NCBI RefSeq assembly: GCF_024700885.2
Contig: NZ_CP117015.1
Source: Escherichia coli
Lineage (GTDB): Bacteria; Pseudomonadota; Gammaproteobacteria; Enterobacterales; Enterobacteriaceae
Reading direction: 5' to 3' (one strand)
DNA length: 8,286 nucleotides
The position numbers are program-made. Below, piece by piece: positions 1-6,000 of the stretch. Each line of letters starts with the position of its first letter. Position 1 is the first letter of the stretch.

Positions 1-3000
1 TCATTGTAATTGCCTTATATGGACGATAGTTGTGCGCATATTGCTATGTTTATGAAGATTGTTAGTTAGTTGACTTATGCATCATTGACAGCGTATCTTC
101 CATTGGAAACGAAAAAACCGCCTTGGCAGGCGGTTTTTCGAAGGTTCTTAGAGTTGGCGCTCTTTGAACCAAGGTAACTGGCTTGGAGGAGCGCAGTCAC
201 CAAAATCTGTTCTTTCAGTTTAGCCTTAACAGGCGCATAACTTCAAGACAAACTCCTCTAAATCAGTTACCAGTGGCTGCTGCCAGTGGCGATAAGTCGT
301 GTCTTACCGGGTTGGACTCAAGACGATAGTTACCGGATAAGGCGCAGCGGTCGGGCTGAACGGGGGGTTCGTGCACACAGCCCAGCTTGGAGCGAACGAC
401 CTACACCGGGCCGAGATACCTACAGCGTGAGCTATGAGAAAGCGCCACGCTTCCCGAAGGGAGAAAGGCGGACAGGTATCCGGTAAACGGCAGGGTCGGA
501 ACAGGAGAGCGCACGAGGGAGCTTCCAGGGGGAAACGCCTGGTATCTTTATAGTCCTGTCGGGTTTCGCCACCTCTGACTTGAGCGTCGATTTTTGTGAT
601 GCTCGTCAGGGGGGCGGAGCCTATGGAAAAACGCCTGCGGTGCTGGCTTCTTCCGGTGCTTTGCTTTTTGCTCACATGTTCTTTCCGGCTTTATCCCCTG
701 ATTCTGTGGATAACCGTATTACCGCCTTTGAGTGCGCTGACACCGCTCGCCGCAGTCGAACGACCGAGCGTAGCGAGTCAGTGAGCGAGGAAGCGGAAGA
801 GCGCCTTATGTGACATTTTCTCCTTACGCTCTGTTGTGCCGTTCGGCATCCTGCCCTGAGCGTTATATCTCTGTGCTATTTTCTACTTCAAAGCGTGTCT
901 GTATGCTGTTCTGGAGTTCTTCTGCGAGTTCGTGCAGCTTCTCACACATGGTGGCCTGCTCGTCAGCATCGAGTGCGTCCAGTTTTTCGAGCAGCGTCAG
1001 GCTCTGGCTTTTTATGAATCCCGCCATGTTGAGTACAGTTTGCTGCTGCTTGTTCATCTTTCTGTTTTCTCCGTTCTGTCTGTCATCTGCGTCGTGTGAT
1101 TATATCGCGCACCACTTTTGGACCGTCTTACCGCCGGTATTCTGCCGACGGGCATTTCTGTCAGACAACACTGTCACTGCCAAAAAACAGCAGTGCTTTG
1201 TTGGTAATTCGAACTTGCAGACAGGACAGGATGTGCAATTGTTATACCGCGCATACATGCACGCTATTACAATTACCCTGGTCAGGGCTTCGCCCCGACA
1301 CCCCATGTCAGATACGGAGCCATGTTTTATGACAAAACGAAGTGGAAGTAATACGCGCAGGCGGGCTATCAGTCGCCCTGTTCGTCTGACGGCAGAAGAA
1401 GACCAGGAAATCAGAAAAAGGGCTGCTGAATGCGGCAAGACCGTTTCCGGTTTTTTACGGGCGGCAGCTCTCGGTAAGAAAGTTAACTCACTGACTGATG
1501 ATCGGGTACTGAAAGAAGTTATGAGACTGGGGGCGTTACAGAAAAAACTCTTTATCGACGGCAAGCGTGTCGGGGACAGAGAGTATGCGGAGGTGCTGAT
1601 CGCTATTACGGAGTATCACCGGGCCCTGTTATCCAGGCTTATGGCAGATTAGCTTCCCGGAGAGAAACTGTCGAAAACAGACGGTATGAACGCCGTAAGC
1701 CCCCAAACCGATCGCCATTCACTTTCATGCATAGCTATGCAGTGAGCTGAAAGCGATCCTGACGCATTTTTCCGGTTTACCCCGGGGAAAACATCTCTTT
1801 TTGCGGTGTTTGCGGCAGAATCGCGTTCAGCGCGTTTTAGCGGTGCGCGTAATGCGACGTTATGGTAAATAGCGATCATGTTATTTGATGTTTTTATTGA
1901 TTATCGCTTTCCTATAAAAAAGTCATTATGACCAGTAACAAAGTAGGAATTTGGAGGGTTTTTCTTCATGCTGCCAAACCCATCTTTTCGTTTCTCTACT
2001 AAAGCTATGAGTCCTATCCCGCTCAGGTAGGCATGCGTCCTAGGTATGTCCGCTTCTGGAATAGAAGTCTGCAAGTTTATTCTTTCAAATGAAGCGCTTG
2101 TATAATGACTGTGATTGTCTCGAACAGCACATAAGTAGATGAACATCTTTAGCGCATAAAGCTCAATCTTGCTTCTTAACTTAAGTTTATGGAATGCTTC
2201 AATCCGTTTGCCATCACGAGATAACAACGCTCTACAAGGCATTTTGCACCAGTCCTTCGAACCATCAAACCCAGGGAATCGGTAGATATTTTTTCGCCTA
2301 ACTTTATCTACTGATAACAGCCCAAGTCTCTCTAAAATATCAATGCCTGATGATATTGATGATCTGCTCAGGGCTGTCAGTTCCGAGAGTTCCTCATAGG
2401 TCGCCTGAGCTGAATAATATGTTATGTAGGTATCTATGTAATGACAGAAAGCCTCTTTACTTTCAGCTCTCATGGACAGCGCTATATACAGTTTTAAGGC
2501 TGCGACCTTATGTGACGGTTTTCCTACCTTGTCATCAGTCCATAAAAGCTCTTTTAAGCGTCCATCTAGTACGAACTTTGAAGGAAATTTTACCCAAGGC
2601 TTCATTGTTACCCCATGCGCATTGCAATAAACAGGATTGATAGAAAGGCGACAAGAACCGAAACCGCCAAGACAAGCGGGGTTAGTTTGTGAGAGTTGTC
2701 TGATAAGTATTTGATTATCATTATATATTTATCGGCTTCCATATAATTTCCTATGGTTTCAGTCTTTTTGATAGGAAAATTTAAGCACGTCTTGGCAATA
2801 TCTATCTAGATATAGGTTAGTCTTTAAAATAAAATTATTCCAATTTTTTCTTTTAAAATCATCTGCTTGAAGCAAAATTGAATCGTCTTTTTAAAGTAAT
2901 CAATAGTTCATGAAAGGGATTGTAGAAGATGTTATGGCGCTGAGGGTGTGGAGCATAAAAGATGCTCTGTCTGGGTGTTTTTATAGCGTATGAAGGAAAT

Positions 3001-6000
3001 TGATTATTGAGATGCTGACTTAGATGGCGCGGCTTTAGCGGATCCGATTTTTAACTGGCGACAGCTTAGTAACGACAGACAGTCTGGTGATTGCCTGTCT
3101 GTCATTGTTGTTCATTTCAATTCAATTCGCCTAATTAGTACATATCCAAAAGCCGTGTCTGCGTACATAACAGTCGTCATTGGGCACTGTTGCAAAGTTA
3201 GCGATGAGGCAGCCTTTTGTCTTATTCAAAGGCCTTACATTTCAAAAACTCTGCTTACCAGGCGCATTTCGCCCAGGGGATCACCATAATAAAATGCTGA
3301 GGCCTGGCCTTTGCGTAGTGCACGCATCACCTCAATACCTTTGATGGTGGCGTAAGCCGTCTTCATGGATTTAAATCCCAGCGTGGCGCCGATTATCCGT
3401 TTCAGTTTGCCATGATCGCATTCAATCACGTTGTTCCGGTACTTAATCTGTCGGTGTTCAACGTCAGACGGGCACCGGCCTTCGCGTTTGAGCAGAGCAA
3501 GCGCGCGACCATAGGCGGGCGCTTTATCCGTGTTGATGAATCGCGGGATCTACCACTTCTTCACGTTGTTGAGGATTTTACCCAGAAACCGGTATGCAGC
3601 TTTGCTGTTACGACGGGAGGAGAGATAAAAATCGACAGTGCGGCCCCGGCTGTCGACGGCCCGGTACAGATACGCCCAGCGGCCATTGACCTTCACGTAG
3701 GTTTCATCCATGTGCCACGGGCAAAGATCGGAAGGGTTACGCCAGTACCAGCGCAGCCGTTTTTCCATTTCAGGCGCATAACGCTGAACCCAGCGGTAAA
3801 TCGTGGAGTGATCGACATTCACTCCGCGTTCAGCCAGCATCTCCTGCAGCTCACGGTAACTGATGCCGTATTTGCAGTACCAGCGTACGGCCCACAGAAT
3901 GATGTCACGCTGAAAATGCCGGCCTTTGAATGGGTTCATGTGCAGCTCCATCAGCAAAAGGGGATGATAAGTTTATCACCACCGACTATTTGCAACAGTG
4001 CCCGATCAAGGGATTCGAAGTCATGCGAGCCCTGCGCAAAGGACAGGCTCGCCCCTGGTGCCTGCAGCCCGGCATCAGGGGCGAGGTGCGCCTTGTGGAG
4101 AGAGCTTTTGGCATTGGGCCCTCGGCGCTGACGGAGGCCATGGGCATGCTCAACCACCATTTCGCAGCAGCCGCCTGATCGGCGCAGAGCGACAGCCTAC
4201 CTCTGACTGCCGCCAATCTTTGCAACAGAGCCCGCCGTGCTAGTCTGCTCGGTGATGGTGGAGTGAAGCCAACCCGCAATCGGGTTATGAATCTGCATCG
4301 CGATTCGCAATCAGCTGTCTCTTGAGCATGTCGAACTCCTGCGATGTTATCTCGCCGTGCTCGTGCTGCTACACCAACTTGTCCAACTCATCCGCCACAC
4401 CGCTCCCCACCACCTGCGATGGCCAGGTTGTTTGCTGGGCGCATTGGCGGAGTATCGTCTCGACCCGGGACACCCACACCGGCACAACCTTACGGGAGTG
4501 ATTCACTGTCAAAGAATCGGCCCGGTGCTCTGACGCAAGTATCGGGATGGTCACCATTTGTAAGCCGTAGACCTGAGTGGTGATCAAGACTTCGATACCA
4601 CCGACCGTACCGGTACTAATCGACGACGGTCGTGTTCGTCGCCTGCCGCAGGGACTCTGCACACCTCCGTTTACGCATGTGCCTGGAGGAGTTGGAAATC
4701 GTCGTGTTCGGGAAACATTAAACACAGGATGGCAGCGATCTGAGCCAGCACATGATCAGCTAGCTCACCATCCGGATCGACGGCCCACTGCATCGTCGCG
4801 CCAGCGATGACCGAGTGCAGGAGCAACTCAGCTGCCGCAGGAGCACCTGGGGGCAGTCGCTTGCGGATCCCCTCCACCACCGCGCGGTTCCGCTGGATCG
4901 CAAGCGTGCGTAGCTCCGGCACCTGGAGCTCGTACCAGGAGATGAGATAGTTCACCGAGAAGTCGTTGCGAGTGTTCATGCTCCGAACGAGCACCTGCAA
5001 AAATTCCCAGAGCCCTTGCGGCCCTGCGCCTATCGGTATCGCATTCAGGTAATGCCGCACCTGCTCGACGCCGCGCTCCATCATCCTCACCAGCAGCGTA
5101 TCGCGGTTGGTGAAGCGCTGGATTAACGCTGCGCGGGAGAGCCCCACCTCCTTTGCTACTCCGCTGAGCGTGAACTCTATGGGACCGCAACGCTTCAGCA
5201 CTACGGTGGCGGCCTCGAGTACCTCGTCATCGGACTTGAGCTTGGGGCGGGGCATCAGTGTTCACCTTCTGTATGGGTTGGGGCGGAGGCTGTGGCTGCC
5301 GCCGCCATTGTAGCAAATTGAAGACGGAGCGAGAGTAGAGCCACGAGCCCCGCAAACACGGCCGATACAACGAGGCCAGGGAGCGGACCAGCAAGGTCGA
5401 CAAACGCGCCGGCCGCAAGCATAACCATGGGCGAGGCTGACAGCATCACCGCCGAGACCGTGCCGAGTACCCGGCCGAGAAGTTCTGGCGGCGTGCGGTT
5501 GTAGATGGCAGCGTTGAGAATGGGAGAGACTGAGCCGGTCAGCAGTCCCACGAGCGCGCCCAACAACATCAGCACCGGCACGCCTGGCAACTGTGAAAGC
5601 AGAAGCGAGCCCACCGCAGAGCCACAAAATGCCACCGCCAGCCAGTTCTGCGCTGATATCCGGGCGCCGACCGACGCATGAATGGCAATGCCAAGGAGAC
5701 CACCAGCCCCCATCATTGAGGAGAACAGCCCGAGCTCTGCTACTTGGCGTCCTGCATCTACAAACAGCGCAGGCATGATGACGCTGCCGTTGGCGCCAAC
5801 GATGCCCACGAAGATCATCACTATACCAAAGAGAGGGCGCAGCAGGGGTTCGCTCCAGAGAAAAGCGACGCCGGCGCGCATGGAGAGAGTCGCCGTCGTG
5901 GTCATCGTCCGAGCGGCACGCGCGGGAAGCACCCACGCGCCGAGCAGACCTGCAAGGACGGAGCAGAACGCCGTCAGCCCGAGCGTTGGCGCAGCGCCAA

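Follow-up and report, generated by a model that had tools for sequence, protein, structure and literature searches.

The 577-bp stretch at positions 2606-3182 of the Escherichia coli plasmid p8_MLI114 (NZ_CP117012.1) lies between a gene for a winged-helix protein of 234 amino acids (aa) and a copy of IS26; the complete plasmid of 8286 bases was analysed and is called the window here. In a reading of the sequence alone, the stretch had been described as an AT-rich leader free of open reading frames (ORFs), with dispersed repeats, a palindrome and a hairpin. Comparison with related loci makes it likely that this leader is a mosaic laid out on the minus strand, composed of a small gene, the control region of the two-gene operon to which that gene belongs and the remnant of a pseudogene, with IS26 as a later arrival. 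The small gene (ORF44), the pseudogene, the transposon junction, the conservation of two sequence boxes in the control region and the fixed distance between these boxes are directly observed, and from them we infer how the promoter is used, which protein occupies which site and that the DNA may be looped. The sequence-only reading is thereby confirmed in part as to what it observed and supported in part as to how it interpreted it.

The description of the leader as ORF-free was misleading, as a threshold of 60 codons had concealed a real gene of 44 codons (Table 1). No ORF of 60 codons or more lies within the leader, although one of 96 codons on the plus strand (2350-2640) intrudes into it by 35 nt. 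ORF44 stops 2 nt ahead of the ATG of the 234-aa gene and bears the mark of a protein-coding gene: the frame is kept in five related loci, the partner proteins of which are 63-100% identical, and substitutions are biased to third codon positions, the pairwise differences among the five loci at codon positions 1, 2 and 3 numbering 126, 75 and 208, as against 217, 242 and 223 in the upstream DNA. Relatives with only 25-44% identity to the 234-aa protein carry an ORF of 40-52 codons as well. In total, a hydrophobic ORF encoding 40-52 residues abuts or overlaps the start of the winged-helix gene in 17 of the 18 relatives for which the start region was recovered, including loci read only in the regulatory alignment; the exception is Pseudomonas bubulae, where the small ORF is neither annotated nor evident. 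The relatives that carry it reach down to 26% protein identity of the partner gene and belong to the gamma-, beta- and alphaproteobacteria, with one phage-plasmid (sources: metagenomes, Klebsiella, Cronobacter, Serratia, Aeromonas, Paracidovorax, Aquibium, Thiohalobacter and the phage-plasmid pJN2-26). The encoded peptides are alike in design, not in sequence: they begin with some 20 residues of mixed character, continue as a hydrophobic helix of about 22 and end in a basic tail; in ORF44 the Kyte-Doolittle maximum is 2.95, at residues 23-41. The arrangement in which the short ORF ends at, or overlaps, the next start codon suggests that translation of the 234-aa gene is probably coupled to that of ORF44, and conservation of the peptide in nearly all relatives suggests that it probably acts as a protein. 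A Shine-Dalgarno region (CATAGGAA) is conserved in the alignment of related loci, with an equivalent GGAG or AGGAGG in three further loci (L018, L019 and L021). In seven E. coli records, this one and six others, no annotation lies under the match to ORF44, and PADLOC, NCBIfam and Pfam gave no specific family for the 44-aa protein, the 234-aa protein or the 251-aa protein described below. A 292-aa relative (P0017) was considered as a fusion of the peptide with the winged-helix protein and was rejected, its extension being unrelated. A terminator-like hairpin (CCGCTTGTCTTGGCGG) with a T-rich tail also occurs at 2664-2679 on the minus strand, within the coding sequence of ORF44; it is probably due to chance, because the stem is weaker in the Klebsiella homologue.

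Upstream of ORF44, the homology between loci that lie in unrelated contexts starts at TTTCATGAAC and extends to the small gene. The AT-rich character attributed to the leader is real (37% GC, compared with 54.5% for the whole window) and is most pronounced here, with 25.9% GC in 2743-2912. Against this background, two boxes stand out. In 16 distinct alpha-, beta- and gammaproteobacterial loci, a TTCATGAAC box is located 100-101 bp upstream of a TCTAGA palindrome, and TGAA(C) and TCTAGA are the only invariant blocks in the 16-locus alignment, the spacer being otherwise unconserved. When all fetched loci were searched for TGAAC and TCTAGA separated by a gap of 85-110 bp (26 lengths), TGAAC-N95/96-TCTAGA was found in 15 distinct loci, with one match in each, on the coding strand and upstream of the gene; Thiohalobacter has a TGAAAC variant at an equal distance. 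Both boxes are nearly palindromic and are related to each other (TTCATGAA and TTCTAGAA). The invariant TCTAGA is embedded in the context GTCACCnnTATCTAGAwAGAA, and the operator box occurs once in the plasmid. In nine loci that were read base by base, TAGAnA is followed after 17-19 bp by TAAAnT (TAATTT in Aquibium), and this -10-like hexamer is in turn followed by a Shine-Dalgarno sequence and the small ORF. A conserved inverted repeat thus overlaps a putative promoter hexamer, TAGAnA being the right half of TCTAGA. The suggestion of the sequence-only reading that the leader holds an operator and promoter for the 234-aa gene was therefore well founded, since even distant relatives keep the palindrome unchanged and it coincides in part with a conserved, putative -35/-10 pair.

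On the basis of this arrangement, the operon would be transcribed from a sigma-70-type promoter with its -35 element, TAGATA, in the right half of the palindrome and its -10 element, TAAATT, 18-19 bp further on. The tandem winged-helix protein would bind the TCTAGA box that overlaps the -35 element and probably acts there as a repressor of its own promoter. It may bind the TGAAC boxes as well; located 100 bp upstream, these probably contribute to a bent or looped repression complex, which the fixed spacing would permit across the AT-rich DNA and which would account for a distance that stays constant although the sequence of the spacer drifts. A host bending protein might occupy an IHF-like site near the midpoint of the spacer, and this element (+42 to +53) is perfect in loci L015 and L022. 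The spacer shows peaks of similarity to ATGAAC at +21/22, +40 and +49, and a clear second (C)ATGAAC-like copy is present 21-23 bp away in Pantoea, E. cloacae, Aeromonas and pJN2-26. The Klebsiella plasmid L022 (NZ_CP083041.1) has, in addition, a second TGAACTAAT box about 75 bp upstream of the first.

Several observations weigh against this model of the control region. The spacing departs from the rule in the two most distant relatives (57/78 bp in pJN2-26 and 141/164 bp in Aeromonas). In the window, the second TGAAC-like box matches the first at only four of six bases. The IHF-like site is weak, with one mismatch, and such sites are not enriched, the window containing six matches where 4.6 are expected. 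A strict consensus promoter scan returned nothing on the minus strand, which is explained by a spacer of 18-19 bp and by hexamers that each match the consensus at only four of six positions. The scan called instead TAGATA-17-TAAAAT on the plus strand (2807-2835); this site was considered as a divergent promoter and rejected, as its -10 element is not conserved in the aligned relatives. Finally, a host factor, rather than the 234-aa protein, could bind the boxes.

An AlphaFold2 model of the 234-aa protein built from only six sequences was unusable (predicted local distance difference test score, pLDDT, 44) and was replaced by one based on an alignment of 113 sequences, which has a pLDDT of 95.9 and consists of two winged-helix domains. 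Over its full length, the model matches a single structure, that of the pi initiator in complex with iteron DNA, and the modelled fold is most like those of the pi/RepE plasmid initiators. A sequence search of the PDB gave generic winged-helix matches only. The first domain matches HTH_36 and PHROG replication-initiator families, and some small plasmids have an HTH_36 protein as their Rep (PMC3832669, PMC7105644). These similarities raise an alternative in which the region is an iteron-type origin or its relic, with monomers of a Rep initiator on the TGAAC-like direct repeats, dimers on TCTAGA and the AT-rich spacer as the site of unwinding. Repression of a rep promoter by dimers at an inverted repeat is established for pSC101, R6K, F and pPS10. 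The (C)ATGAAC repeats found 21-23 bp apart in several loci, the low GC content of the spacer and the overlap of the inverted repeat with the promoter are compatible with such an origin as well. We nevertheless regard it as unlikely. The repeats are two in number and short, with a core of 5-7 bp and a degenerate second copy, rather than at least three iterons of 17-22 bp; ACCnnTATCTAGAnAGAA matches once in the plasmid, and a repeat search reported no such family. No TTWTNCACA sequence occurs at one mismatch or fewer in 2606-3182, though an AT-rich stretch is present, and the sole perfect DnaA box in the window (705-713) belongs to the ColE1 origin. A further replicon is present in every complete plasmid that was examined: the ColE1 RNAI in the window plasmid and L022, a ColE1-like backbone in p.P39Z2, RepE in Cronobacter and IncFII in Pantoea, with Rep_3 on a Kosakonia contig. 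Genes of the 234-aa type are also found on the chromosomes of Aquibium and Thiohalobacter, and the conserved membrane-peptide gene is foreign to known Rep modules. Of the degenerate iterons proposed earlier, what stands is a conserved (C)ATGAAC-like direct repeat beside the gene for a protein with a pi/RepE-like fold; only one of the three GTCTTT-type motifs (2885-2896) coincides with it, the core is much shorter than an iteron and a DnaA box is lacking.

The reading of the region as a mosaic also draws on its right-hand part, which derives from a gene of 251 codons. The Klebsiella pneumoniae plasmid p.P39Z2 (NZ_CP040353.1, 4007 bp) shares with the window the 234-aa gene (91.5% protein and about 87% DNA identity), the region upstream of it and the junction with the ColE1 backbone, and has at the same backbone position and on the same strand an intact 251-codon ORF followed by a clean intrinsic terminator (ACGCCC-TATGT-GGGCGT, then T7); this ORF is missing from the plasmid table because it crosses the origin of the record. 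A gapped DNA alignment resolves a deletion of about 525 bp, a 9-bp deletion, a 4-bp insertion, deletions of 13, 1 and 25 bp and a broken terminator, while tblastn places residues 193-251 at 3121-2984, with in-frame stops (E = 2.9e-6), and residues 1-11 at 3180-3148. The sequence is thus homologous to both ends of an intact gene and disabling deletions, frameshifts or stops are present, which identifies it as a pseudogene. The gene would once have stood upstream of the operon on the same strand, leaving the remnant and the broken terminator behind. The earlier suspicion that the leader may be a fragment is correct in that its right third is a gene remnant; both gene ends are present, however, with the middle deleted, and the decay is older than IS26 and was not caused by it, because 3176-bp plasmids free of IS26 already carry it. 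The 251-aa family comprises ten clusters, mostly on plasmid-like contigs of 2.5-5 kb and usually without the 234-aa gene, and has no Pfam or PDB sequence match. The intact protein starts with MTTVIY and contains conserved FFAGDEYPIV and LGTGG or LGSGG motifs. A relative with 28% identity is encoded on plasmid p52 of the enterotoxigenic E. coli strain H10407. Assignment of the family to the HslV/Ntn-hydrolases, suggested by one weak PHROG match (E = 0.039) and the MTTV N-terminus, was not adopted.

The hairpin lies within this decayed coding sequence and is a by-product of the pseudogene remnant. Its fold has z-scores of -3.7 on the minus strand and -2.3 on the plus strand, compared with -0.3 and -0.8 for the corresponding stretch of the intact Klebsiella gene, from which the structure is absent, so that conservation of the hairpin across homologues does not hold. 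This bears on the proposal of a small regulatory RNA or structured leader encoded here, such as one running on the plus strand from the promoter-like site at 2807-2835 to the hairpin and its T-rich tail at 3071-3125. The better-than-shuffled fold and the T-rich stretch behind it are what such an RNA would display, yet we consider the proposal very improbable: no Rfam match was obtained in 2550-3250 even at E ≤ 1, the plus-strand -10 element is absent from the Klebsiella homologue together with the hairpin, and the hairpin has a loop of 12 nt, is part of a dead gene and was not called by the terminator scan.

The significance of the short motifs was assessed with 200 dinucleotide-preserving shuffles of the 577 bp. 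A family of three 10-mers with at most one mismatch was matched in 49 shuffles and a perfect 10-bp palindrome in 107; the two TTGATAGRAAA copies differ at two of 11 positions, and closer pairs arise about 2.5 times per shuffle. Only the perfect 9-bp stem exceeded chance, and marginally (matched in 6 of 200). Since shuffled sequences reach them, the short repeats and the palindrome are unremarkable when the leader is considered in isolation, and the palindrome and the third GTCTTT-type motif are significant only because they are conserved in other loci. The motif coordinates given in the sequence-only reading are correct, except that the middle copy reads TCTTTTAAAAT at 2849-2859 after a T, so that it begins TTCTTT. 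The GTCTTTWAAA triplet and the TTGATAGRAAA pair were also considered as iterons and rejected, being within the range of chance and not kept as repeats in the relatives; one TTGATAG copy falls within the coding sequence of ORF44. That the AT-rich stretch, the pseudogene apart, is a non-functional spacer with motifs arisen by chance would agree with the shuffle results for the 10-mers, the palindrome and the TTGATAGRAAA pair, but is hardly credible given the coding signature of ORF44 and two boxes that, across 16 loci of three proteobacterial classes, are invariant and 100-101 bp apart although the spacer between them drifts.

The right edge of the leader is an IS26 junction, as had been recognized: IS26 begins at 3183, adjoined by the target duplication CGTCATTG, the left copy of which covers the start codon of the 251-aa pseudogene. 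Two IS26 copies in direct orientation (3183-4002 and 7465-8284), which differ by a single base, enclose mphR(A)-mrx(A)-mph(A) and a remnant of IS6100. Excision of 3183-8286 plus 1-6 yields a circle of 3176 bp that is identical to CP099278.1 except for four single-nucleotide polymorphisms, and Salmonella and six additional complete E. coli genomes contain the same IS26-free 3176-bp form. Two direct copies, an 8-bp duplication and empty-site plasmids together identify a composite transposon. It would have arrived last, entering 2 bp upstream of the start codon of the dead gene and leaving the operon untouched. Although p8_MLI114 is recorded as linear in the plasmid collection, it is circular, because the target duplication spans the ends of the record and the plasmid matches the circular 3176-bp plasmids. 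RNAI at 109-208, the sole Rfam match in the window, makes it a ColE1-type replicon; it also carries rom and a mobA remnant. In the IS26-free ancestor, the leader region continues into window positions 7-70 and is followed by the presumed RNAII promoter, which was read by eye as TTGACT (71-76) and TATCTT (95-100). The features of the leader and its surroundings are collected in Table 1.

Table 1. Positions in the window of the elements that make up the leader and its borders
Feature	Positions	Strand	Remarks
234-aa gene, second in operon	1901-2605	-	two winged-helix domains
ORF44, 44 codons, unannotated	2608-2742	-	single-pass membrane peptide MEADKYIMIIKYLSDNSHKLTPLVLAVSVLVAFLSILFIAMRMG
TTGATAGRAAA pair	2637-2647; 2768-2778		TTGATAGAAAG; TTGATAGGAAA
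Control region of the ORF44 and 234-aa gene operon	2743-2915	-	
Shine-Dalgarno-like AGGAAA	2747-2752	-	4 nt before ORF44 ATG
Putative -10, TAAATT or TTAAAT	2783-2778 or 2784-2779	-	
Conserved putative operator/-35 box CTAACCTATATCTAGATAGAT	2800-2820	-	contains palindrome TATCTAGATA (2803-2812)
10-bp palindrome TATCTAGATA	2803-2812		
Putative -35, TAGATA	2808-2803	-	right half of palindrome
GTCTTT-type motifs	2820-2830; 2849-2859; 2885-2896		GTCTTTAAAAT; TCTTTTAAAAT; GTCTTTTTAAAG
AT-rich spacer of fixed length	2821-2905	-	holds AAAGAC and IHF-like element
IHF-like element CAAGCAGATGATT	2869-2857	-	AATCATCTGCTTG on other strand; 1 mismatch to WATCAANNNNTTR
Degenerate second box AAAGAC	2890-2885	-	+22 from first; inside third GTCTTT-type motif
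Upstream box TTTCATGAAC	2915-2906	-	5' limit of conserved module
Broken terminator remnant of 251-aa gene	2945-2980	-	3' arm replaced
251-aa gene remnant	2981-3180	-	start codon 3180-3178, codons 1-8, damaged last ~65 codons
Hairpin	3071-3106 (12 pairs); 3074-3103 (9 perfect pairs)		inside pseudogene, codons for DRQAITRLSV
8-bp target duplication CGTCATTG	3175-3182 (left copy); 8285-8286 plus 1-6 (second copy)		made by IS26 composite transposon

Some further details of the plasmid were recorded. The transposon lies only about 65 bp upstream of the presumed RNAII -35 element. In the E. coli and Klebsiella plasmids alike, the cargo (251-aa gene, ORF44 and 234-aa gene) is located at the same point of the backbone. 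The base that distinguishes the IS26 copies is A at 3552 and G at 7834, which we read as a change from CAG to TAG on the coding strand; the resulting stop splits the left transposase into ORFs of 135 and 64 aa, leaving the right copy as the sole source of intact Tnp26 (240 aa). The interval 4003-4240, between the left IS26 and mphR(A), contains an IS6100 end (inverted repeat at about 4200-4232) and the apparent 3' end of its transposase gene, a layout that we take to be the usual IS26-mph(A)-mrx-mphR-IS6100 arrangement.

Beyond this plasmid, the 234-aa family encompasses 436 clusters at 50% identity and is encoded on 197 plasmids and one phage-plasmid. Annotations within the family are restricted to ArsR/MarR-like, hypothetical or an automatic "replication protein". 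No known defence-system model matched the operon, its proteins matched no curated NCBIfam family above the cut-off, scans of viral and genome contig collections with the close-family alignment returned no relatives, and a literature search by protein accession found no work on the module. The 2880-bp Klebsiella plasmid L022 consists of a ColE1-type origin (RNAI at 2037-2138) with the ORF44/234-aa-type module as its only cargo. A contig of 2194 bp (L018) was considered as a minimal plasmid and set aside, as it has no terminal overlap that would show it to be circular. On the chromosome of Thiohalobacter thiocyanaticus (L020, 5774-7687), the module lies about 40 bp from an apparently 5'-truncated comM-like gene that retains the Mg_chelatase and Mg_chelatase_C domains only, and this adjacency suggests that it may lie at the margin of an island that has integrated into comM. 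A nuclease-like gene is next downstream on the same strand in three unrelated loci, encoding a restriction endonuclease, an Endonuc-like_C-domain protein and an Endonuclease_1 (L024, 2282-3163; L014, 7111-8451; L020, 7975-8415), a hint that variable cargo may travel with the module or be regulated by it. A possible function, which we put forward with considerable reserve, is that of an uncharacterised two-gene plasmid system in which the Rep-like protein controls, or works with, the membrane peptide in addiction, exclusion, defence against phages or inhibition of rival iteron replicons. Such a system would explain why the module is the sole cargo of ColE1 plasmids of 2.9-3.2 kb and why it recurs on about 200 plasmids, on chromosomes and on a phage-plasmid.

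The unusual length of the leader is accounted for by a gene that RefSeq does not annotate, a control region and a dead gene. The leader itself is therefore largely ordinary; the module to which it belongs is uncharacterised and has a control region of unusually rigid geometry. The IS26-mph(A) transposon landed in DNA that was already dead, which fits a small multicopy plasmid that tolerates the insertion. What the comparison reveals is a widespread and unstudied two-gene module that is the sole cargo of some 2.9-kb plasmids. A fixed geometry of this sort is, as a rule, the sign of a defined nucleoprotein complex, which makes the system open to direct testing, and if the module stabilises small resistance plasmids or excludes their competitors, it bears on the persistence of such plasmids.

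Among known systems, the module has parallels in the auto-repressed promoters from which iteron plasmids express their rep genes (pi of R6K, RepE of F, RepA of pSC101 and pPS10), with which it shares a protein of two winged-helix domains, an inverted repeat over its own putative -35 element, short direct repeats in helical phase with AT-rich DNA upstream and, possibly, an IHF-like site. It differs from them in that the sequence similarity is confined to generic winged helix-turn-helix and HTH_36 matches, in having two repeats of 5-7 bp and no DnaA box, in its invariable location beside another replicon or on a chromosome, and in the membrane-peptide gene inserted between promoter and winged-helix gene. 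Two-operator repression loops formed with an architectural protein, such as the GalR-HU repressosome and the lac, deo and ara loops, have a comparable layout: here, two related near-palindromes (TTCATGAA and TwTCTAGAwA) are separated by a constant distance of about 100 bp of bendable AT-rich DNA, and one of the two coincides with the putative promoter. The fold of the regulator is different from that of GalR and LacI. The short ORF that ends at, or overlaps, the start of the gene for a DNA-binding protein resembles tap-repA of R1 and repY-repZ of ColIb-P9. Unlike in those leaders, however, the peptide is conserved as a membrane peptide of 40-52 residues in 17 of 18 relatives, and neither an antisense RNA nor a pseudoknot was found here. 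Although the Rfam search detected no antisense RNA gene and the partner is a DNA-binding protein encoded downstream, the peptide itself, with about 45 residues, one transmembrane helix, a basic tail and a place among plasmid cargo, resembles in these respects the small hydrophobic toxins of toxin-antitoxin systems (Hok, TisB and GhoT).

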